Shown here piece after piece: positions 34,102 through 43,346 of a stretch of 64,000 nucleotides of DNA (the first letter of the stretch is position 1; every line of letters begins with the position of its first letter). Location: positions 1,408,001-1,472,000 of the forward strand of contig CAVQYR010000001.1 in assembly GCA_963718235.1 (NCBI GenBank), read 5' to 3'. The notes under the pieces are model-generated. The model was given only the letters and a program-made list of their open reading frames with translations, made no database searches and had not been told where the DNA came from. The stretch is from an uncultured Actinomycetota bacterium (GTDB lineage Bacteria; Actinomycetota; Actinomycetes; JAHEKZ01). The translations under genes were made by a program, and so were the position numbers.

Positions 34102-34677
34102 ATGACACTGACTGCTGACCGGGCCTTCGTAGACGGCCTCGGCTTCTTCGGCTCGGTGGTCGACCGGCTGGGACCGGACGACTGGGGGCGGGCGTCGGCC
34201 TGCGCGGGCTGGACGGTGCTCGATGTCCTCGGCCACCTGAGCACGGCGGTGGAGATGGGGATCAGCGTGCTGCAGGGGGCGCAGCCGACCTGGCCGGAGG
34301 TCGCACGCCCCGCGGAGCATGTCGTGGGCGATCCGCTCACCCACTGGCAGGCGCTGGAGTCGCGCGCCAGGGCGGCTCTGGTGGGGGCTGACCTCGACCT
34401 CGAGATGGACACGCCGATGGGTCCTCGCACGGTCGCCGATCGGCTCGCGTTCCCGGCCATCGACCTGTACGTGCACGCCTGGGACGTCGGCGCTCCGTGC
34501 GGGGTACCGGTCGAGCTCCCCACCGAGGTGATCGACTTCAGCCATGCCCAGCTCGACCCCTTCCCGGCCGAGATGATGCGCGGTGATCAGGGGGCGTTCG
34601 GACCGGAGGTGCCGGCACCCGCCGACGCCACGACCAGCGAGGCCTTCCTCGCCTGGACGGGCCGCTCGCCCCGCTGA
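34102..34677 (+). CDS. Mycothiol-dependent maleylpyruvate isomerase N-terminal/TIGR03086-family metal-binding protein
   Basis: CAGWTVLDVLGH, VHAWD, LAWTGR; GAGG RBS. Confidence 0.85.
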   Translation: MTLTADRAFVDGLGFFGSVVDRLGPDDWGRASACAGWTVLDVLGHLSTAVEMGISVLQGAQPTWPEVARPAEHVVGDPLTHWQALESRARAALVGADLDLEMDTPMGPRTVADRLAFPAIDLYVHAWDVGAPCGVPVELPTEVIDFSHAQLDPFPAEMMRGDQGAFGPEVPAPADATTSEAFLAWTGRSPR

Positions 34678-34707
34678 ACGGACTCCCGGGAGGGGCTCCG
34701 GGACGGC

Positions 34708-34735
34708 TCAAGGGCCTCGCGCTTCGCGTCGATGA
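34708..34735 (+). promoter_or_regulatory. Putative sigma28/WhiG-type promoter of the GGDEF-EAL gene
   Basis: TCAA (34708-34711), 16 nt, GTCGATGA (34728-34735), ending 30 nt before the ATG at 34766. Confidence 0.6.
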
Positions 34736-34765
34736 CTGCTGCGACGGCCAAACTGGGGGTACCGC

Positions 34766-36769
34766 ATGCGCCGATGGGGGCTGACCGCGACCTTCGCGGT
34801 GGTGAGCCTCCTTGCCATGGCCGCTGTGGGGATCCTTCTCGTCGTGGCGATTGGCAAGCAGGCGCGCGAGTACGCCCTCGACGAGGCCGTGCGCACGGCC
34901 GAGGCCTACGTCTCCGCCGGAGTTCTGGACGTCGCTTCGGTGGAAGCCCTGACCGGGCGGGATGTCCTGCTGGCGCAGGACCGCATGCAGATCACCGACC
35001 TGGCAGCACCAGACGACGACCTCCTCGCGCTGCGCCTGTGGACGGCCGACAGCCAGCTCGTCTTCGGGACCGACTCGCAGGACGGTCGCTTTCCCGACGG
35101 GATCCGGCTCGACCAGGCGCTGACCGGGGTGCCGGCACCCCGGGTCGTCGACGACCTGGGGAATGATGGACGGGTCCAGGGTCGTGCCTTGTCGGTCTAC
35201 CTGCCCGTGCGTGACGAGCGGACCGGGAACCCGGTGGGGGCGGCCGAGGTCGTCCTGGACTACACCGAGACCGAGGCGGCCGTCTCCAGGGCGGTCGGGA
35301 TCGTGGCCCTGCTGGTCGTGGCCGGGCTCGGTCTGCTGTGGCTGCTGCTCTTCCGGACGGTCTCCAATGCGAGCCGGCGGCTGCGCAGTCACGCCACCGA
35401 GAACGCCCGGCTCGCGCTCCTCGACCCCCTCACCGCCCTGCCGAACCGCCGACTGCTCTCCGAGCGGATCGACCGAGCGGTGACGGCCGCCACCAGGTCC
35501 GAGCACTCGATGGCCCTGCTCCTGCTCGACGTCGACGGGTTCAAGGAGGTCAACGACACCCTCGGCCATGACTTCGGGGACAAGCTGCTCGTCGAGGTGG
35601 CCGGCCGGGTCCGCGCGGTGGCCCGGCAGACCGACACGGTGGCCCGTCTGGGAGGCGACGAGTTCGCCATCCTGATGCCTTACGTCCATGACGTGGAGGA
35701 TGCCTCGGCCCTGGCCCGTCGGGTGCTGGGCGTGTTCGGGGACGCGTTCTCCCTGGGCGGCATGACGCTCCACGTGGACTCCAGCATCGGTGTGGCCCTG
35801 CTGCCCGACCACGCCGACGACCAGATGACCCTGATGCGTCACGCCGACGTTGCCATGTACGCCGCCAAGCGGGCCAAGCTCGGGTACGCCGTCTACTCCC
35901 AGGAAGGCGACCACCACAGCGCTCAGCGGCTCACCCTGATGGGGGACCTGCGCCGGGCCCTGACCGCCGACGACCAGCTGGCCCTGCACTACCAGCCCAA
36001 GATCAACCTGCGCACCGGACGGGTCGCTGGGCTCGAGGCGCTGCTTCGGTGGAACCACCCCGAGGTGGGCAGTGTCTCTCCGGCCGACTTCATCCCGCTC
36101 GCCGAACAGACGGGAATGGTCAGCGACCTCACCCAGTGGGTGCTGGAGCGGGCCGTCGAGCAGCTGGCCGTATGGGAGGGCGACCGAGCGGGGTTCCCTC
36201 TCGATCTTGCGGTCAACCTCTCCGCCCGCAACCTGCACGAGACCGAGCTGTCCGCACGGGTGCGCCAGCTGCTCCAGGACGCCCGGGTCAGCCCGGCCTG
36301 CCTGGAGCTGGAGATCACCGAGAGTGCCATCCCGGCCGATGCGGGCCGGGCCCAGGACGCGATGGCCGAGCTCTCCGAGCTCGGCGTCCGGCTGGCGGTC
36401 GACGACTTCGGTATCGGCAACACCTCGATCAGCCAGCTGCGCAGCATCCCACTGCGCACGCTCAAGATCGACCGCTCGTTCATCGCGCCGCTCACCACCG
36501 ATGCCGGAAGCATCGTCCTGGCGAGAGCAATCATCGACCTGGCCCACGAGTTCGGGCTGGTCACGGTCGCCGAAGGCGTGGAGGACACTGAGACGGCGAC
36601 GATCCTTCGTGACCTCGGCTGCGACCTCGCTCAGGGGTTCCTCTGGTCTCCCGCGGTGTCGGCCGCCGACCTCGTCGCCGTCGCCCGGGAGATCGACGCC
36701 AAGGCCTACGACGCGGTGCCCGTCACCAGTGGTTCTGCGCGTAGAGCTCGGCCACGTCGCTCGCGGTGA
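34766..36769 (+). CDS. Membrane-bound diguanylate cyclase/phosphodiesterase (2 TM with extracellular sensor, GGDEF, EAL)
   Basis: DPLTALPNR, DVDGFKEVND, I-site RQTD five residues before an intact GGDEF; EALLRW, VNLS, LEITE, DDFGIG, KIDRSF, AEGVE, QGF. Confidence 0.94.
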   Translation: MRRWGLTATFAVVSLLAMAAVGILLVVAIGKQAREYALDEAVRTAEAYVSAGVLDVASVEALTGRDVLLAQDRMQITDLAAPDDDLLALRLWTADSQLVFGTDSQDGRFPDGIRLDQALTGVPAPRVVDDLGNDGRVQGRALSVYLPVRDERTGNPVGAAEVVLDYTETEAAVSRAVGIVALLVVAGLGLLWLLLFRTVSNASRRLRSHATENARLALLDPLTALPNRRLLSERIDRAVTAATRSEHSMALLLLDVDGFKEVNDTLGHDFGDKLLVEVAGRVRAVARQTDTVARLGGDEFAILMPYVHDVEDASALARRVLGVFGDAFSLGGMTLHVDSSIGVALLPDHADDQMTLMRHADVAMYAAKRAKLGYAVYSQEGDHHSAQRLTLMGDLRRALTADDQLALHYQPKINLRTGRVAGLEALLRWNHPEVGSVSPADFIPLAEQTGMVSDLTQWVLERAVEQLAVWEGDRAGFPLDLAVNLSARNLHETELSARVRQLLQDARVSPACLELEITESAIPADAGRAQDAMAELSELGVRLAVDDFGIGNTSISQLRSIPLRTLKIDRSFIAPLTTDAGSIVLARAIIDLAHEFGLVTVAEGVEDTETATILRDLGCDLAQGFLWSPAVSAADLVAVAREIDAKAYDAVPVTSGSARRARPRRSR

Positions 36770-37664
36770 GTGCCCGGTTCTGCCAGACGGCGACCTCGTC
36801 GACTCGTCCGGAGAGCTGGTCACGGGTCGGTGCGCCCGGGCCGAACCCGGTCGTGGCGTCGTAGCCGACCCGCCAGTAGCCGTGGCCGTCGGGAGTCGGC
36901 GGGACCGCCGGCGGGGGAGGGTCGGTCGGCTCGTTGCCGGTGTAGACCGCCCCTGACGTGAGCGTGGGGTCGGAGTCCACCTCGACGCCGTCCACGTACA
37001 GGACCGTTCCCGATGGGCCGACCGTGGCGACGAGCAGGTGCGGCACGTCGTCGTTGACGGGGGTGGCTCCCTGCACGGTCGTCCGAGGGGCCAGGCCCAC
37101 GGTGAATGCGGGCCGCCCGTCCGGTCGAAGGTAGAGCACCCGGTCCCGGTTGACCGACGTCCCCCACCGGGCCGATCCCATGCCCAGGACCCAGCCACCC
37201 TGGTCGGAGGTCGTCTGGACCCAGGCGCTGATCGTGAAGGTGTCCGGGTTGGGCACCGCGGTGGGCTGGACCAGGAACTGGCTGCTCGTCGGCGTGCCCG
37301 GCAGGTCGAGGGAGTAGGTGTCGTCGCACTCGATGAGCCCAGCGCTGGTCGGCCCGAAGGTCAGCCCGACGTCCTGGACGGTGGCGTCCAGGTCGTTGGC
37401 GGTCGAGTCCTGCACGGAGGTCACCGCGGGCGGTGCCTGCTCGCCGAGCCGCCAGTAGAACGAGGGGTTGGCGGCGAGCACGGCGGCCGCGTACGACGGT
37501 CCGGTCGAGCAGGCGGAGCGCGTGGTCATCGTGTTGCCGACGACGACGGCGGTGTCGTTGAACTGCGCCGTGGCCGTCATCGGCGGCTGCACCCCCACGG
37601 CCAGGCCGGTCAGGGTGGCTGCTACCGCGAGACCGGCGCCCCTAGACCACAGCGTGGGCGACAT
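36723..37664 (-). CDS. Secreted LamG/concanavalin-like domain protein with a SipW-cognate signal peptide
   Basis: Signal ...ATAQFNDTAVVVGNTMTT (A-x-F-x-D...N); YWRLGE, FTISAW, DRVLY, VNDDVPH, LYVDG, GYWRVGYD, GRVDEVAVW. Confidence 0.82.
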   Translation of the reverse strand: MSPTLWSRGAGLAVAATLTGLAVGVQPPMTATAQFNDTAVVVGNTMTTRSACSTGPSYAAAVLAANPSFYWRLGEQAPPAVTSVQDSTANDLDATVQDVGLTFGPTSAGLIECDDTYSLDLPGTPTSSQFLVQPTAVPNPDTFTISAWVQTTSDQGGWVLGMGSARWGTSVNRDRVLYLRPDGRPAFTVGLAPRTTVQGATPVNDDVPHLLVATVGPSGTVLYVDGVEVDSDPTLTSGAVYTGNEPTDPPPPAVPPTPDGHGYWRVGYDATTGFGPGAPTRDQLSGRVDEVAVWQNRALTASDVAELYAQNHW

Positions 37665-38283
37665 CTTCGTGCCTTTGTCCCGGTCGGCGCTGCTGCGGCT
37701 CGTCGGTCAGGACGGGTGCGGGCGCCGGCCGCCACGACCAGAGCTCGGCCAGCAGCAGGAGCAGGAAGGGGGGAGCGAAGAGGACGAGCTTGCCGACGAA
37801 CGTTCTCGACCACAGGAGCCAGGCACCCCACCCGGCGTAGCCGTCGACCACGAGGTAGCGCACCTGACCCACGGGGGTGAGGTTGGGGTCCGGGTCCTCG
37901 TTGTTCTGGCCCTTGGTCTGCACGTAGTGGTCGGTCTCGATCCGACCAGACGGGCCGTACACCGGTGAGCCGTCGACCCCGGTTCGCGGCAGGGTCTTGA
38001 GGGCCACGATCTCGTGGGTGACGTAGGTGTGGCTCTCGAGGCTCTCCTTGAACGTGATCACCTGACCCACCTTCAACTGGTCTGGGGTCACCTGTTCGGC
38101 GACGACGACCGAACCGGCCGGATAGGTCGGGGCCATGCTGCCGCCGGTGAGCACGAGCAGGGTCTGGCCGCGCAGCTCGTAGACCAACGGACCGCCGTAG
38201 GCGAGCAGGGCACCGGCGAGGGAGGCGAGCAGGAGGCCCCGAAAGGCCCACCGCCGCGCCCTGGTCCTCGCCGGCGCCGTCAT
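37642..38283 (-). CDS. sipW: Signal peptidase I, SipW/ER type (S26B)
   Basis: N-terminal TM, GGSMAP (Ser), VGQVITF, VTHEIV (His), TKGQNNEDPD, C-terminal TM; lies between two SipW-cognate substrates. Confidence 0.87.
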   Translation of the reverse strand: MTAPARTRARRWAFRGLLLASLAGALLAYGGPLVYELRGQTLLVLTGGSMAPTYPAGSVVVAEQVTPDQLKVGQVITFKESLESHTYVTHEIVALKTLPRTGVDGSPVYGPSGRIETDHYVQTKGQNNEDPDPNLTPVGQVRYLVVDGYAGWGAWLLWSRTFVGKLVLFAPPFLLLLLAELWSWRPAPAPVLTDEPQQRRPGQRHEDVAHAVV

Positions 38284-38285
38284 GC

Positions 38286-38918
38286 TCAGTTGTTGACGGT
38301 CTGCTCGGCGTCGAACGTCAGCGTGATCGTGCTGGTGGCGTTCTGGTACGCGTTGCCGGTAGCCAGGGGCAGAGCCACCCGGAAGCAGAGGTTCTCGGTG
38401 TCGCCGGCGATCAGCGACCGGTCGCCGGGCTGCAGACCCTGGGCGTTGTCACCGATGAGGTTCGCTGGGCTGCTCAGGTCGGTCGGACCACCCTCGAGGG
38501 TGCCCAGCGAGACATCCCCCGCTGCACACGCGATGGGCGCCACACCGCTGTAGACACTGATCCGCAGCTGGGTGCGCAGCGCCTTGGCGTCCGGGTTGTC
38601 CGCGGACGCGGTCAGGGCGTAGCGCAGCCGCAGCGATCCGTTGTTCTCGACCCGCACGTTGCCGTACACGTCGTCCCCAGGTGCCATGTTCCCGGCCGTG
38701 AGCGCGGCCGTGCCAGGGGTGGTTCCCAAGCGGACCGTGCCCGTGGTGATGTCGCTGGCGCCCAGCGTCTGGGAGTCGGTGAACAAGGCGCTGGACAGCC
38801 CGATCCCCACGAAGGCGAGAGCGGCCAGCGCGGTCGCGGCCCCGACCCGGCGCCTTCGATCTCGTTGGCCTTGGTCGTCCGGCCGGTCTCTCTCGAGCTC
38901 GGTCCACAGGTCGTTCAT
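38286..38918 (-). CDS. TasA/CalY (camelysin M73)-like SipW-processed fibre subunit
   Basis: Signal ...SSALFTDSQ..ITTGTV; NMAPGD, VENNGSL.LRY, GNAYQNA....TFDAEQ. Confidence 0.82.
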   Translation of the reverse strand: MNDLWTELERDRPDDQGQRDRRRRVGAATALAALAFVGIGLSSALFTDSQTLGASDITTGTVRLGTTPGTAALTAGNMAPGDDVYGNVRVENNGSLRLRYALTASADNPDAKALRTQLRISVYSGVAPIACAAGDVSLGTLEGGPTDLSSPANLIGDNAQGLQPGDRSLIAGDTENLCFRVALPLATGNAYQNATSTITLTFDAEQTVNN

Positions 38919-38982
38919 GTCGGCCCCCCGGGGTCGTCGGTCGGAAGGGCCGACGCTTGTTCGTCGTCCTCCCGTGTCCGCG

Positions 38983-39010
38983 TTATCGGCAGCGGAGGAC
39001 GCATGGTTGA
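38983..39010 (-). promoter_or_regulatory. Putative sigma28/WhiG-type promoter of the tasA-like operon
   Basis: Minus strand TCAA (39010-39007), 16 nt, GCCGATAA (38990-38983); the -10 equals the FliA/SigD/WhiG consensus. Confidence 0.75.
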
Positions 39011-39029
39011 GCGCTTGCGCCAAGCAGGC

Positions 39030-39045
39030 TCACCCGATCGGCCCA
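39030..39045 (-). promoter_or_regulatory. Putative BldM/WhiI-like response-regulator binding site
   Basis: Minus strand TGGGCCGATCGGGTGA fits TGnnCCGnnCGGGTGA (consensus as recalled), about 20 nt upstream of the -35. Confidence 0.45.
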
Positions 39046-39059
39046 GCGGGGCGACCCCG

Positions 39060-39106
39060 GACGACCGAAGGCCCGGACCGAGGGGAGGTCCGGGCCTTCG
39101 GTCGTC
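39060..39106. terminator. Intrinsic terminator-like hairpin after the first PKD gene
   Basis: Perfect 20-bp stem gacgaccgaaggcccggacc / ggtccgggccttcggtcgtc with a 7-nt loop, about 10 nt after the stop at 39116. Confidence 0.85.
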
Positions 39107-39115
39107 TTGTGGTGG

Positions 39116-42100
39116 CTAGGTCACGGTGACAGTTCGAGTGGTCGTGCTGGACCGGTTCCACCCGTCCGTGACGGTCAGGGTGATCGTGTACGTGCCCGGA
39201 GCGGTGTAGGTGCGCGACGGTGACGCCGCGGTACTGGCCGCCGAGCCGTCGCCCCAGTTCCAGGAGTACCGGATCACGTCACCGTTGGGGTCGCTCGTGC
39301 CGAAGCTGTTCATCTGGCACACCCTGAGCGTGCAGCTGGCGGTGAAGGTCACCGTCGGCGGCTGGTTGGCAGCTGGTTCGATCAGCACGACCTGTCGGGT
39401 CGTGCTGGCTGCCTTGCCCCATCCGTCGGTGGTGGTCAAAGTGATCGTGTACGTGCCCGGAATTGCGTAGGTGTGAGCCGGTGCGGTGCCTGTGCCGGTC
39501 GCCGTGCCGTCTCCCCAGTTCCACACATATGCGATCGTGTCCCCGACGTTCGGGTCGACCGTTCCCGTGCTGCTCGTGGAGCAGGCCAGCGCGATGACAG
39601 CTGGTGAGGAACGTCGGAACCGGTGCCACGTTGCCGGCTGGCTCGGTGATGGTCACCGACAGCGCGGCCGTTGAGGTGACGTTCCACTCGTCCCTCACTG
39701 TCAGCACCACCGAGTAGGTACCCGGCGCGGTGTAGGTCTTGATCGGGATCGGCCCGCTCCCCGTGCCTTGGTTGGTACCGAAGTTCCAGGAGTAGACGAG
39801 CGCCGTCGGGTTCTCGTCGGTCGAGCCGCGACCGTCGAACGAGCAGACGTTCTGCGCGCACGAGACTGTCGCGGAGGCGACCGGCGGGTTGTTCACCGGG
39901 TGGGTCACCACGATGCCCACCGAGGTGCGGGTTTCCCCGATCTGGTCGTGGTGGTCGGTCGGTCGCACCAGGACGCTGTAGGTGCCGTCCGGGATCACCG
40001 GTGTGGTGTACGAGAAGTTCGACCCAGGGCTGCCGGGGCTGTTCAAGAACGCCTGCCGCCAGCTCGGCGTCGTGCTGGTGAACGTGCCCGTCGAGCTCAT
40101 GTACTGCCCCGCCGAGTTGACGATCCCGACCTCGACCCGGGCGATGCTGATGTCGTCGATGGCTCGGCCACTGACGACGATCTTGCCCTCGGTGAAGGTG
40201 GAGCCGTCGACCGGCTGACCCAGTGCCGCCTCGAAGGCGGGCGGAAGGTCACCGGGGTAGTAGCGGTAACGAGCGGTCGCCCCCGTCGTGGACGGGTCCT
40301 GCTGTCCTGACGTGTCGAAGGCGAAGGCGGTGATGCTGTAGTCACCTCCGGTGGGCAGAACGATGGGCAGCGTCCAGGCCGTACTGGTCGCACCGGGCGC
40401 AGCCAACGTCGCGTTGACCCGGTTGTAGCCGGAGAGCATCTGCCCGTTGTCCTGCATGTACCGACCCGTGTCGTTGTCGAACACGGTGAGCTCCACGCTC
40501 TGCACGCCCTTGTCGTCGGTGGCCGTTCCGGCCAGGTTGAGCTCAGGCACAGTGACCGTGAACGTCCCCGTCGGGTTGATCAAGCCGTCGGGCAGGAGGT
40601 CGCCGGGCACCTGGGCGCTGACGGTCAGCCGCCCCTGGTTCGCGGACGATGTGACGAGGTCGTCGTTGTCCGTCGCCCGAACCGTGAAGGTGTACGTGCC
40701 TGGGACTCAGGTTGAACGGCGTCGTGTACGACCAGTTGTAGCTGGCCGCGTTGATGTTGACCGGTGAGACCCGGTAGTTGCCAGCCGCGATGCCGACTCC
40801 CCAGGTGCCGTCGGCTCCCAGGTTCTCCCGGGTCGTGGTGTTCCGCAGAGTGATCTCCACGTTCTTCAGCCGGTCGTCGTCGGACGCGGTTCCGGAGAAC
40901 GTCATCGGCGAGCCCGGGTTGGCCACCACAGTCGGCACCGCGAACGGCGGGGTCATCGACACGGGCTGGCTGATGCTGACCGTCGGTGCCACGGCGTTCG
41001 AGTTGACCTGAAGTCGCGGACCGCGCTCCGCAGGTCAGCCTGGCCAGCCGTGTCCACTGCGGTGGCGCTGCCCCGCCAGACGCCCTCGTGGGGGAGGGTG
41101 ACCTCGTACGACCAGGTGGCCGACGTTGCTCCGACCACGTCTGGAACGCCGCGGAACGTGTTGAAGATCGGGTCCGACCGTGCCGTCGTTCTGCAGGTAG
41201 TTCTGGTTCTCGTCGCGGAACCAGTAGGTCAGCGAGTTGACCCCGTGGTCGTCGGTCGCCGTTCCCGTCATCGTGAAGGTCGTCGACGTCTGGATCCCAC
41301 TCGGACCGGTGATGTTGGTCGTCGGCGTCTGGTCGTCGAAGCTGAACGACTCGATCTTCTTGACTGCCTTGGTGGCATCGTTCGTGCCGTTGGTGCCGTA
41401 GGTCTTTGCCATGATCTGCAGGTTGTGGTTGCCCGTGATGGTGACTGGCAGAGACCACGGCGTCACGCCGCCACCGGGCGTACCCAGCGTGGCGTAGATG
41501 TTGTTGCTCCCACCCCAGGTGACACCGTCGTCCTGCAGGTAGCGCTTCGTGTCGCGGTCCTGGATCTCGACCTGTACCCGGCGGATCCCCTGGGGGTTCT
41601 TGGCCGTCCCCTGGATCGTGAATGGCACGCCCGAGGTGACCACGCGACCCTCAATCGGTGAGGTCGATCGTGGTGTCGGTGGTCGAGGGTGCTGGAACGG
41701 AGTTGAAGTCGTAGAAGGCGACACGTCCAGTGCGGACCCCGCCTTGGAACATTCCGTCGCCGGCGACGAAGAGCCCGCGTGAGGTCGCCTCCATGGCCTT
41801 GTTGCCCTCGAACGAGTTCGAGCCAGGGTTCCACTCGAGTGCCGTGCCGGTCGTCGGGTCGAGCGCGCCGATGTGGTCGCGACGCACGACCTGGTCACCG
41901 AGGCCGTAGCCGGACAGGCCCTGGCCGGTGCCGTAGCCGACGTTGTCAAGCCCGGGCCACGGCTGGTTCGCCGTCGGCGACTCGTTCCAGCTGAAGTGTC
42001 CACCGACGTAGACAGCGCGCTCGGTGATCGCGATCGAGTAGATGCTGTCGAAGCAGCGGGCGATCCACAGCGGCTCGACGTTGTCACCACCTGCGATGGG

Positions 42101-43072
42101 ATAGGCGATCGCGGTGTCGCTGATCGGTGGTCGGTCGCCGCCGGAGCCACTGCCGACCACGAAGTACTGGTCGTTCGGGGCGATGTCCCCGGCGTAGATG
42201 CGCTGGATGCCGCCGACGATGGCCAGGTTGTCGTCCCAGAGGCGAGTACGCCAGGGGAGGAGCTGCTTGGTCTGGGTGTTGATCAGGCCGATGCCGAGGC
42301 GGTCCTGTCCGGCGATCTTGCGGCCGGTGTGGACGACGAGGAGCTTGCTGTCGTCGTGGGTCAGCTTGAGCTGCTGCACGGTGAGCGCGCCGTCGACGCC
42401 GATACCGCCGGAGATCGAGTTGTCGAAGGAGAGGTCGACCGCCCCAGTGGTGCCGTTGAGGGCGGCTAGGCCCGTGCGCAACTGACCGTTGATCCGGCTG
42501 AACCGGCCGCCGACGTAGACCGTCGAGTTTGTTGCGGCCAGGGCGGTGGCGTAGTTGTTGGTGCTCTGCGTCACGGCGAAGTTCGCAACCGGGGCCCCGG
42601 TCGTGAGATTGAGGCTGGCGACCTTCTGCCGTGCCACTCCGTTGACCGTGCTGAAGGAGCCGGCGACGTACAGCTTGGTGCCGTCGGGTGAGGCCTCGAC
42701 TGCGTTGACGCCGCCGTTGAACGTCGGCCGGAACGTGGTGTCGATCAAGCCGGTGTTGATGTTGTAGGACGCCAGATAGCGCTGGTTGATCGTGGCGGTG
42801 GGGGCGATGGTGTTGGCCAGTGAGGTGAAGGACCCCGCGATGAACACTCGGTTGCCCACGACCTCCATGTCCCAGATCTCACCGTTGCTGATCCGGGGCG
42901 TGTCCTTGCGCGGCACAGACGGCACGAGACCGGTGTGGCCGGGGAGCGCCTGGGCGGCGAGGACGGACGGCCCGACGAGGGCTGCCTGCGCGGGAGCGGC
43001 CACCAGCGGAACACCCATGACCCCGACGGCCACGGTCAGGGCACTGGCCCAGAAACGGTTGCGTACCGACAT
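39116..43072 (-). CDS. Large secreted protein, paralog 1: Sec signal, beta-propeller, about 5 Ig-like repeats, 3 PKD domains (about 1300 aa; about 5 apparent frameshifts)
   Basis: MSVRNRFWASALTVAVG..APAQA signal; VYVGG.F/LYVAG.F blades; PKD motifs YSWNF/WNWGDG..H.Y..PGTY.ITLTVTD; pieces join across frames near 41660, 41170, 41005, 40700 and 39595 and are colinear with paralog 2. Confidence 0.85.
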
Positions 43073-43346
43073 TCGGTGACCCCTCATCTTGGCTCGCGGG
43101 AAGCTCAGAGCCGACCCCCCGGCGCCCACCTACTCAACGGAGAGGCCATCCTCGCAGCCGTTCCGGGCGGCCGCCAAAGAGTTCCGGGAAGTCGCCTCGG
43201 CTGACTACTGAGAGTGATCGAGTGGTCCGTGAGGGTCACCCTTGCTCGGGAACCTTCCTGGTTCGGTCCGTGCGATGGTCCGGCCGCGGCCGGGACTGTC
43301 AGACCCTCGCGAGACGGTCGTGGCGTCGAGATGGGGTGAGCGTCTG

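Follow-up and report, generated by a model that had tools for sequence, protein, structure and literature searches.

Four adjacent genes within the window (the whole 64,000-nucleotide stretch of DNA analysed here) probably build a Bacillus-like surface fibre, and a sigma factor under the control of c-di-GMP most likely switches the set on. Three of them, encoding a TasA-family protein, a SipW-like signal peptidase and an exported LamG protein, lie together on the minus strand, and the fourth, encoding a membrane GGDEF-EAL protein, converges on them from the plus strand. The gene families, the folds, the promoter match and its conservation, the presence of WhiG and RsiG and the synteny were computed directly. 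The system is small (about 4.3 kb) and bears on whether actinobacteria make TasA-like fibres at all. Nearly identical DNA occurs in freshwater-sediment habitats, and the sequencing runs listed as containing the locus include no RNA run. The features, with nucleotide positions in the window, are as follows.

34708-34735 (+): WhiG-like promoter of the GGDEF-EAL gene, TCAA-N16-GTCGATGA, ending 31 nt before the ATG
34766-36769 (+): membrane GGDEF-EAL protein gene, 667 amino acids, Pfam GGDEF and EAL
36723-37664 (-): gene for an exported protein with a LamG/ConA-like lectin fold, 313 amino acids, Laminin_G_3, E 4e-14
37642-38283 (-): sipW-like gene, archaeal/ER-type signal peptidase I, 213 amino acids, TIGR02228
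38286-38918 (-): tasA/camelysin-family gene, 210 amino acids, PF12389 above the gathering score
38983-39010 (-): tasA operon promoter, WhiG/sigma-28 type, TCAA-N16-GCCGATAA, with 65 nt between its end and the ATG
39055-39112 (-): 20-bp GC-rich hairpin, terminator-like boundary of the tasA unit, just after the stop codon of the PKD region

The tasA-sipW-lamG operon and its upstream boundary

The original prediction described tasA, sipW and lamG as a tight operon, and both the coordinates and the profile matches confirm this: 2 nt separate tasA from sipW, and sipW overlaps lamG by 23 nt. The TasA-like protein scores 31.4 bits against PF12389 (gathering score 22.5), a match that covers profile positions 8-79 of 196 only, and the same domain is present in 118/120 homologues among the matches listed. 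The start codon at ATG 38918 corresponds to the aligned methionine in 17 of 22 family members. The protein begins with an arginine-rich region, followed by a transmembrane segment, an ALFTD motif and a jelly-roll domain of ~165 amino acids. We take ALFTD, or more generally A.[FY][TSN][DES], to be the SipW-class cleavage motif; an ALFTD-type motif was seen in 21 of the 22 aligned TasA-family members. The AF2 model has a pLDDT of 74 overall, with all ten-residue blocks from residue 61 onwards at 75 or above and mostly at 84-94, and this monomer model leaves residues 45-56, the predicted mature N-terminus, without structure. In a Foldseek search of the PDB the best matches were to Bacillus subtilis TasA (5OF2/5OF1, E 1.5e-6, with a modest TM-score of 0.39-0.43), and the fibre form of TasA, 8AUR, was also matched (E 1.1e-3).

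The SipW-like protein matches TIGR02228 over residues 26-145 (58.2 bits, cut-off 51.85), and the motifs GGSMAP and VTHEIV, which we presume to be catalytic, can be read in its translation. The gene adjoins tasA in most of 80 related loci. Against the equivalog models for B. subtilis TasA (NF046066; 24.6, cut-off 450) and Bacillus SipW (NF046067; 36.3, cut-off 190) both proteins score below the cut-off; they are distant family members, not Bacillus orthologues.

The LamG protein has its own signal peptide followed by a TasA-like N-terminal block (AQFND...MTTR). By our reading the N-terminal sequence ...TATAQFND... would be a SipW-class signal, and 9/18 aligned LamG orthologues carry A.[FY][TSN][DES] in its strict form. 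The AF2 model has a pLDDT of 81.5, with the signal (residues 1-30) below 50 and the two ten-residue blocks of residues 31-50 at 52; its Foldseek matches were generic lectin-like beta-sandwiches. Long stop-to-stop frames in related loci L032, L040, L047, L053 and L081 had suggested a SipW-LamG fusion, a candidate that was rejected because the LamG genes each possess a separate start and signal peptide.

A large PKD protein gene had been described just upstream, and this part of the description did not hold. The minus-strand region concerned, 39116-43129, lacks a single continuous reading frame: at least five frame changes emerge from its stop-to-stop ORFs and from an analysis of GC3 by frame. 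They may reflect a pseudogene or an assembly error, and no homopolymers of six or more bases were found in the frame-change zones. There were no tblastn matches to the PKD gene in the 80 related loci and it is syntenic in none of them. The hairpin that separates it from tasA is strong (-47.6 kcal/mol, z -7.2; none of 200 shuffles as stable), although it was not listed by the consensus terminator scan as it has no U-tract. On the basis of this hairpin and of the absence from the related loci we rejected the PKD/propeller gene as a member of the system.

WhiG-type promoters and the RsiG-WhiG pair

Both units carry the TCAA-N16 motifs exactly as they had been described. The tasA promoter is an exact 4+8 match to the published WhiG2 consensus T(A/C)AA-N16-GCCGATAA, with 8/8 positions in the -10 element. 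The search rule of Denis et al. (2026) is T(A/C)AA-N16-GCCGA(TAA) in intergenic DNA at most 200 nt from a start codon; the -10 element of the GGDEF-EAL promoter (GTCGAT) has one mismatch, which is allowed under this rule. The pattern formed by the two sites had no match in 100 shuffles, but it was composed from these same sites and the test is therefore not independent of them; independent support comes from the orthologues. A promoter scan found no sigma-70-like site in 34500-39300.

In 15 of 20 tasA-sipW-lamG loci the 200 nt upstream of tasA contain a match to the published rule, exact in 10 of them; the count becomes 15/19 if one locus with no upstream DNA is set aside; as the loci are kin (L016, L019 and L088 are near-identical upstream), such counts overstate independence. 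The corresponding figures are 2/60 for other TasA loci and 2/101 for neighbouring control genes of the same loci, one of these two being the partner GGDEF-EAL gene. The tasA promoter is thus conserved in relatives, and it tracks RsiG: the tasA matches are confined to RsiG-positive genomes (15/16, compared with 0/8 RsiG-negative genomes). The -35 and -10 elements are kept in the orthologous tasA promoters and the spacers vary, as do some -10 boxes (GCCGAGGG, GTCGAGAG, ACCGACAT). The GGDEF-EAL promoter occupies the same position in orthologues, as CTCA-N16-GTCGATGT (L013), TCAA-N16-GTCGATAC (L014) and TTAA-N16-GTCGATAT (L015); L015 has TTAA in both of its promoters, which the published rule for the -35 does not admit. 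Upstream of the -35 element, 6/16 promoters share a further conserved box, ATCgGGTGa. Searches against Rfam gave no family at the gathering score, either in the window or in eight related loci, and the idea that the conserved upstream boxes belong to a riboswitch or leader was given up.

The genome, which is 95% complete, encodes WhiG, which scores above the cut-off with 283 bits and reaches 367 bits against 6PFJ_A, a crystallised WhiG chain. It also encodes an RsiG with a pair of E..S..R...Q...D motifs, whose match to 6PFJ_T extends along the full length. The sigma-28-family gene and the rsiG gene that were sought are thus both present, and type IV pilus genes were found behind WhiG-type sites; flagellin, the other appendage gene sought, was not found in the genome. 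A genome-wide scan gave a divided answer. In its full form, TCAA-N16-GCCGATAA, the tasA site is the sole occurrence in 3.17 Mb (GCCGATAA itself occurs seven times), and the sole other T[AC]AA-N15-17-GCCGATAA lies 6 nt before a second GAF-GGDEF gene. The published rule is not specific, having 218 exact matches, of which 19 are intergenic and well placed. This is at or below the number predicted by the genome-wide rate, and in the absence of enrichment the predicted regulon list is only suggestive. It includes two MCP genes, pilM, a pilin gene and a Wzy-like gene in the pilus region, as well as one gene each for a GAF-GGDEF protein, a GGDEF-EAL protein and a response regulator of LuxR type, and the DUF4388 gene that adjoins rsiG; some of the exact intergenic matches (clpC, zwf, maf) are probably due to chance. 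Taken together, the promoter, the WhiG/RsiG pair and the conservation provide computational support for the predicted sigma-28-type control of the fibre operon.

The GGDEF-EAL gene and its linkage to the operon

As originally described, the operon runs head-on into a GGDEF-EAL gene, which overlaps the 3' end of lamG by 47 nt. Both Pfam domains are above the cut-off (GGDEF, 152.5 bits, 1e-44; EAL, 247.3 bits, 2e-73). The protein has a transmembrane segment, an extracytoplasmic domain of ~145 amino acids, a second transmembrane segment, GGDEF with an I-site, and EAL. The GGDEF motif is preceded, five residues upstream, by an RxxD I-site, and EALLR, DDFGIG, KID and EGVE are present as well; judged by the motifs that count as catalytic in GGDEF and EAL domains, its catalytic motifs are intact and it is a predicted c-di-GMP enzyme. 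In the ESM Atlas the sensor region falls in clusters that are mostly unnamed, with sCache_3_2 in 36% of the members of one cluster; a relation to sCache_3_2 is a lead only.

The predicted linkage of this gene to tasA-sipW-lamG is kept in relatives. Full-length orthologues, with 45-76% identity that includes the sensor domain, adjoin tasA modules in three gene orders: convergent, in the window and in L013-15; leading the operon, in L030, L044, L074, L076 and L092; and trailing it, in L066 and L090. Where GGDEF-EAL leads the operon, only two of the five loci have a one-mismatch promoter match, and those genomes are without RsiG. All linked loci fall in one TasA clade (support 95/95), which indicates that the link arose once; it has since outlasted at least two rearrangements, across TasA proteins that are merely 41-47% identical. 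Within the family, only three genomes have an orthologue of the sensor domain (68-73% identity), and they are the ones with the close tasA orthologue; the remaining genomes have only a paralogue of 30-37% identity. In 18/19 family genomes the GGDEF-EAL orthologue and tasA are either both present or both absent; G001 departs from this pattern, with a divergent tasA that lies at the end of a contig.

Proposed model and comparison with known systems

From these data we infer that WhiG reads the tasA promoter, that fibres form, and what the role of the LamG protein and the sign of the feedback might be. We propose that the TasA-family subunit and the LamG protein are both exported via SipW-class signal peptides and cleaved by the operon's own archaeal-type signal peptidase. 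The TasA-like subunit would then most likely polymerise outside the cell by donor-strand exchange to form a surface fibre, in which the LamG protein could be a minor subunit, serving as initiator or as adhesin. Transcription of the operon from a sigma-WhiG promoter would mean that it is on at low c-di-GMP, when RsiG releases WhiG, and that type IV pilus, chemoreceptor and several GGDEF genes are on simultaneously. The GGDEF-EAL protein, with its extracytoplasmic sensor domain and its own weaker WhiG-type promoter, may feed back on the c-di-GMP pool that controls RsiG-WhiG. We hold this scheme of a four-gene, WhiG-controlled fibre module with feedback, taken as a whole, with moderate confidence. 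In a more tentative extension, a 'matrix-type' fibre would be made at low and not high c-di-GMP, opposite to classical matrix genes, as part of a WhiG 'surface exploration' regulon with type IV pili and chemoreceptors. The GGDEF-EAL protein would sense the state of the fibre or of a LamG ligand outside the cell, reset c-di-GMP and re-arm RsiG, making the set a self-limiting, portable cassette; we regard this as possible, though speculative.

Other explanations of the data were considered. The TasA-like protein could be a monomeric secreted or wall protein, either a camelysin-like protease or a coat protein, with LamG an independent exported lectin or enzyme module and SipW only processing both. 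This would fit the family name (Peptidase_M73/camelysin), the label 'spore coat-associated protein N' on relatives and the lack of a TapA homologue. We consider it unlikely, however, as the best structural matches of the predicted model are to B. subtilis TasA, the fibre form included, residues 45-56 are modelled without structure, as a donor strand would be, and no HExxH motif was seen on reading the TasA-like sequence; a dedicated SipW beside a TasA-family gene is also how described fibre operons are arranged (PMC9245690).

Alternatively, the secretion module might be real and the WhiG-like motif non-functional, with transcription left to a housekeeping or another (e.g. ECF) sigma factor and no c-di-GMP control via WhiG. 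Chance-level matching of the published rule across the genome and the variable -10 boxes of the orthologues point this way, and the ATCgGGTGa box hints at another regulator. Nevertheless, the -10 element is perfect and the site unique in the genome, orthologous loci far exceed control genes in matches, the motif goes missing precisely in genomes without RsiG and WhiG, and the nearby DNA offers no sigma-70-like alternative; we think this explanation distinctly improbable. Less probable still, in our judgement, is that the GGDEF-EAL gene is a mere neighbour, which takes part in c-di-GMP turnover at large and is not tied specifically to the fibre module. Half of the tasA-sipW-lamG loci found by tblastn (10/20) have no GGDEF-EAL gene within 8 kb, and every linked locus belongs to one clade, as a neighbour would allow; against it speak the linkage kept through rearrangements and TasA divergence, the gain and loss shared with tasA, and the promoter conserved at -58. 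We therefore retain the fibre module with its own c-di-GMP enzyme as the preferred reading, and the locus suggests a portable four-gene cassette wired into the RsiG-WhiG switch in several uncultured actinobacterial lineages.

Filaments built by strand donation are described in archaea, as bundling pili (AbpA/AbpB) and the Tat-dependent Tafi pili of haloarchaea (PMC9245690, PMC12337348). They share with the present system a TasA-like fold or assembly logic and an accessory protein proposed as fibre starter and adhesin, and Tafi pili also have a dedicated signal peptidase; they differ in belonging to another domain of life and in that these accounts describe no link to sigma-28 or c-di-GMP. PF12389 homologues in Actinobacteriota and Chloroflexota are reported as a survey result only (PMC9245690). 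A close parallel is the tapA-sipW-tasA biofilm fibre operon of B. subtilis (PMC9245690), whose TasA forms donor-strand fibres (PMC9674648, PMC10151520). As there, a TasA-family subunit with a predicted TasA-like fold, a dedicated SipW-type peptidase and a putatively SipW-processed accessory protein share one operon. In contrast to B. subtilis, the genes are ordered tasA-sipW-lamG, the accessory is a LamG lectin-fold protein and not TapA, and TasA and SipW are not equivalogs of the Bacillus proteins; the locus bears on how a lectin-fold accessory would do the work of TapA. Also different are the sigma-28/WhiG-type promoter, the membrane GGDEF-EAL gene and the high-GC actinobacterial host.

The proposed control has a counterpart in Streptomyces venezuelae and Rubrobacter radiotolerans, namely the RsiG-(c-di-GMP)2-WhiG switch (PMC7005675, PMC8325347). 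The genome's WhiG and twin-motif RsiG resemble the crystallised pair (6PFJ) closely, and its WhiG is very similar to that of S. venezuelae. As in Rubrobacter (PMC8325347), WhiG-type promoters precede type IV pilus and DGC/PDE genes. Phylum-wide WhiG regulons have been predicted (Denis et al. 2026, bioRxiv 10.64898/2026.01.14.699351; final version PMC13595943), and their categories (pili, chemotaxis, regulators and c-di-GMP enzymes as feedback) match the sites in this genome; that search covered genera with named representatives, whereas the lineages here are uncultured. The original prediction that a c-di-GMP enzyme might feed back on its sigma factor stands as a proposal for this locus, but the idea of WhiG transcribing DGC/PDE genes was already in print (PMC8325347; Denis et al. 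2026). What the locus bears on is whether a dedicated membrane GGDEF-EAL protein closes such a loop. None of the texts searched describes a WhiG-targeted TasA-type fibre module accompanied by a GGDEF-EAL partner of its own. 'TasA', 'camelysin' and 'signal peptidase' do not occur in the main text of PMC8325347, and TasA, SipW, camelysin, peptidase and fibre/fiber are absent from the main texts of Denis et al. (2026; preprint and PMC13595943), whose supplementary target tables may list such genes. RsiG-WhiG is described as the only known sigma/anti-sigma complex directly targeted by c-di-GMP, with spores, type IV pili, flagella or chemotaxis, and c-di-GMP enzymes as its outputs (PMC8325347, Denis et al. 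2026). Unlike these, the predicted target here is a TasA-type fibre operon, and with this fibre, served by a signal peptidase of its own, the outputs of WhiG would gain a third kind of surface filament.

The tasA module and its products

The window has a GC content of 70% and belongs to a 3.17 Mb genome in two contigs, the nearest relatives of which are MAGs labelled uncultured Actinomycetota. Gene limits were set by codon-position GC analysis and profile searches, which gave four genes:

34766-36769, +, GGDEF-EAL gene
36723-37664, -, LamG gene (lamG)
37642-38283, -, archaeal/ER-type signal peptidase gene (sipW-like)
38286-38918, -, TasA/camelysin-family gene (tasA-like)

The tight tasA-sipW-lamG operon running head-on into a GGDEF-EAL gene, as originally predicted, was borne out: tasA and sipW are separated by 2 nt, sipW and lamG share 23 nt as read from the sequence, and lamG and the GGDEF-EAL gene, which converge, have 47 nt of their 3' ends in common (36723-36769). 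The mRNA ends would thus be complementary and might give rise to antisense effects or transcriptional interference. The same 47-nt overlap occurs in the related TasA locus L013 (10144-10190), and that in L014 is apparently larger. An aligned Met at ATG 38918 begins the protein in 17/22 relatives, which makes a 245-aa TTG-initiated frame from the mechanical listing unlikely. Two overlapping tblastn pieces each in L014 (11708-11793, GGDEF-EAL) and L015 (9730-9992, LamG) look like frameshifts or assembly indels.

The TasA-like protein matched PF12389 above the cut-off, although the match is confined to the profile's N-terminal third; PF12389 is present in 118 of its 120 listed homologues. In its AF2 model residues 1-56 are unstructured and all ten-residue blocks from residue 61 have pLDDT values of at least 75, mostly 84-94. 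The best PDB matches are Bacillus subtilis TasA (5OF2/5OF1, E 1.5e-6, TM 0.39-0.43), and the TasA fibre 8AUR was also matched (E 1.1e-3). By profile cut-offs, neither the TasA-like protein nor the peptidase is an equivalog of its Bacillus counterpart (TasA and SipW, respectively). Residues 1-26 (38841-38918, -) form a cytoplasmic N-region, MD..x.ELE ... RRRR, that precedes the hydrophobic core and is conserved in most relatives; its Arg run could be Tat-like, by analogy with haloarchaeal Tafi pilins. The LamG protein model (pLDDT 81.5) has generic lectin-like beta-sandwiches as fold neighbours (9-18% identity). In each of the 18 aligned LamG orthologues, a signal peptide of its own leads into a block similar to the N-terminus of TasA; the strict A-x-[FY]-[TSN]-[DES] motif is present in 9/18, as against 21/22 TasA relatives. 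From this signal peptide and block we infer a TapA/AbpB-like role for the LamG protein, as initiator or adhesin.

The large PKD gene noted just upstream of the tasA unit does lie there. This gene (39116-43129, -; ~1,300 codons) would encode a secreted protein with a Sec signal, beta-propeller, Ig-like and three PKD domains, but its coding sequence passes through at least five reading frames in succession. The frame-change zones contain no homopolymer of six or more bases and one run of five, and the breaks reflect either a pseudogene or assembly error. Overlaps of >30 nt affect 117 of the 2585 neighbouring same-strand gene pairs in a crude gene call of the genome, which would be consistent with some indels introduced by assembly. 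A 20-bp hairpin lies just after the PKD stop codon (-47.6 kcal/mol, z -7.2) and the gene pieces had no tblastn match in any of the 80 related TasA loci; the gene was therefore dropped as a member and is regarded as a neighbour only.

WhiG-type promoters and the WhiG-RsiG switch

The WhiG-type promoter proposed upstream of tasA, TCAA-N16-GCCGATAA at 38983-39010, is an exact match to the WhiG2 consensus that Denis et al. (2026) cite. It occurs once in the genome, and GCCGATAA seven times in all; there is just one further T[AC]AA-N15-17-GCCGATAA, 6 nt ahead of a GAF-GGDEF gene. Under the published rule (T[AC]AA-N16 or CTCA-N16-17, then GCCGA; no more than one mismatch, which may not fall in CGA; up to 200 nt from the start), matches were found in 15 of 20 tblastn-defined tasA-sipW-lamG loci (10 exact; one of the 20 lacks upstream DNA), compared with 2/101 control genes, the latter being other genes, each preceded by 60 nt or more of non-coding DNA, in the same 19 loci. 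One of these two is the partner GGDEF-EAL gene. The upstream regions of L016, L019 and L088 are near-identical and amount to a single observation. Other TasA loci, mostly from Chloroflexota, gave 2/60 matches, both with one mismatch. When the promoters were aligned on the -10, the boxes kept constant spacing while the spacers diverged.

A second conserved box, approximately ATCgGGTG(a/g), precedes the -35 at a distance that varies; upstream of tasA it is present in the window (39030-39045, -) and in L013, L014, L025, L032 and L090, and it may be a regulator site. The predicted ~58-nt tasA 5' leader (38925-38982, -) has a weak stem-loop (-26.3 kcal/mol, z -2.2), for which no feature is claimed.

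A sigma-28-family gene and rsiG were indeed present in the same genome. One WhiG-family sigma factor exceeded the cut-off, with a score of 367 bits to the 6PFJ WhiG chain, and the anti-sigma factor RsiG has both c-di-GMP-binding motifs and aligns end to end with the RsiG chain of the same structure. No flagellin was found in this genome (95% complete). Among RsiG-positive genomes with evaluable tasA-sipW-lamG loci the promoter is present in 15/16, the lone exception being L015, with TTAA in its tasA and GGDEF-EAL promoters alike; directly upstream of tasA it is present in 0/8 RsiG-negative genomes, three of which also lack a WhiG above the cut-off. Flagellin was found in 0/5 RsiG-positive genomes sampled versus 2/5 of the RsiG-negative group. 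Among the other genomes of the family, WhiG is present in 18/19 and the tasA module in 4/19; the switch is thus conserved, and the module is an accessory cassette added to it.

Across the host genome the rule gave 1088 matches (218 exact), of which 47 (19 exact) were intergenic and no more than 200 nt from a gene on the same strand. As the intergenic matches do not exceed the overall rate, this list of sites is only suggestive. The 19 include two chemoreceptor genes, pilM, a pilin gene and a Wzy-like gene of a pilus region, a GAF-GGDEF gene, a second GGDEF-EAL gene, a LuxR-type response regulator and an rsiG-adjacent DUF4388 gene, along with likely chance matches (clpC, zwf, maf). These target categories are those given for Rubrobacter (PMC8325347) and phylum-wide (Denis et al., 2026). 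Outside the window, tandem GAF-GGDEF genes (G000:C1:831290-834725; 547 and 554 aa) have one such site apiece, TCAA-N16-GCCGATGG and, 6 nt before the ATG of the second, TCAA-N17-GCCGATAA, so that the latter transcript may be leaderless. A type IV pilus region (G000:C1:1932893-1947491; pilM, pilin and Wzy_C-like genes) has three exact sites, as described for such a region in Rubrobacter (PMC8325347). A gene for an 894-aa DUF4388 protein (G000:C2:36841-41101), divergent to the adjoining rsiG, has CTCA-N17-GCCGAAGG.

The GGDEF-EAL partner

In the GGDEF-EAL protein two TM segments flank a ~145-aa outside domain, and the claim of intact motifs held, with GGDEF, an RxxD I-site, EALLR, DDFGIG and EGVE all read; both domains look intact. 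The WhiG-type promoter predicted for this gene, TCAA-N16-GTCGATGA, was also recovered, and the three closest orthologues keep the site in a matching place (-58 to -60). The published rule is passed by two of them; L015 has TTAA.

Synteny of the module in relatives was confirmed as adjacency. Full-length orthologues, sensor domain included, adjoin tasA modules in three orders:

Convergent with the tasA module: window, L013-15
Leading the operon: L030, L044, L074, L076, L092
Trailing the operon: L066, L090

The L044 order, by Pfam, is GGDEF-EAL, TasA, a 402-aa peptidase-containing frame and LamG. The second conserved box described above for tasA promoters lies upstream of GGDEF-EAL in L030, L044, L076 and L092, taking the GGGTGAAAT form in the operon-leading group. 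The 11 linked loci form one clade on the TasA tree (support 95/95); the link arose once and has outlasted two or more rearrangements. Within the family, only G003, G006 and G012, the genomes with the close tasA orthologue, have the sensor-domain orthologue (68-73% identity); the remainder have just a 30-37% paralogue. GGDEF-EAL is absent within 8 kb at 10/20 tblastn-defined tasA-sipW-lamG loci, and the partner is thus clade-specific.

Proposed circuit and known systems

RsiG releases WhiG at low c-di-GMP in Streptomyces and Rubrobacter (PMC7005675; PMC8325347), and by extension would do so in this host. WhiG-RNAP would then transcribe tasA-sipW-lamG, the GGDEF-EAL gene more weakly, and pilus and chemoreceptor genes alongside. 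SipW would cleave both exported proteins, after which the TasA-like protein would polymerise. The membrane GGDEF-EAL protein would alter c-di-GMP and so re-tune RsiG-WhiG; as both domains look intact, this feedback could have either sign.

PF12389 homologues in Actinobacteriota and Chloroflexota have been surveyed (PMC9245690), and WhiG-driven DGC/PDE feedback is already in print (PMC8325347; Denis et al., 2026). 'TasA', 'camelysin' and 'signal peptidase' do not occur in Schumacher et al. (2021; PMC8325347), nor do these terms or 'SipW' in the main text of the Denis et al. (2026) preprint, or 'TasA', 'camelysin', 'peptidase', 'fibre' or 'fiber' in the main text of its final version, although supplementary target tables may bear on how new the arrangement is. 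Literature joining TasA, c-di-GMP, GGDEF and sipW yielded nothing on Actinobacteria, and the matches listed for TasA, SipW and Actinobacteria were reviews or Bacillus work only. Judged from comparative evidence, the locus is well supported as a new variant that combines known kinds of system: a TasA/SipW fibre operon, a WhiG regulon and c-di-GMP feedback.
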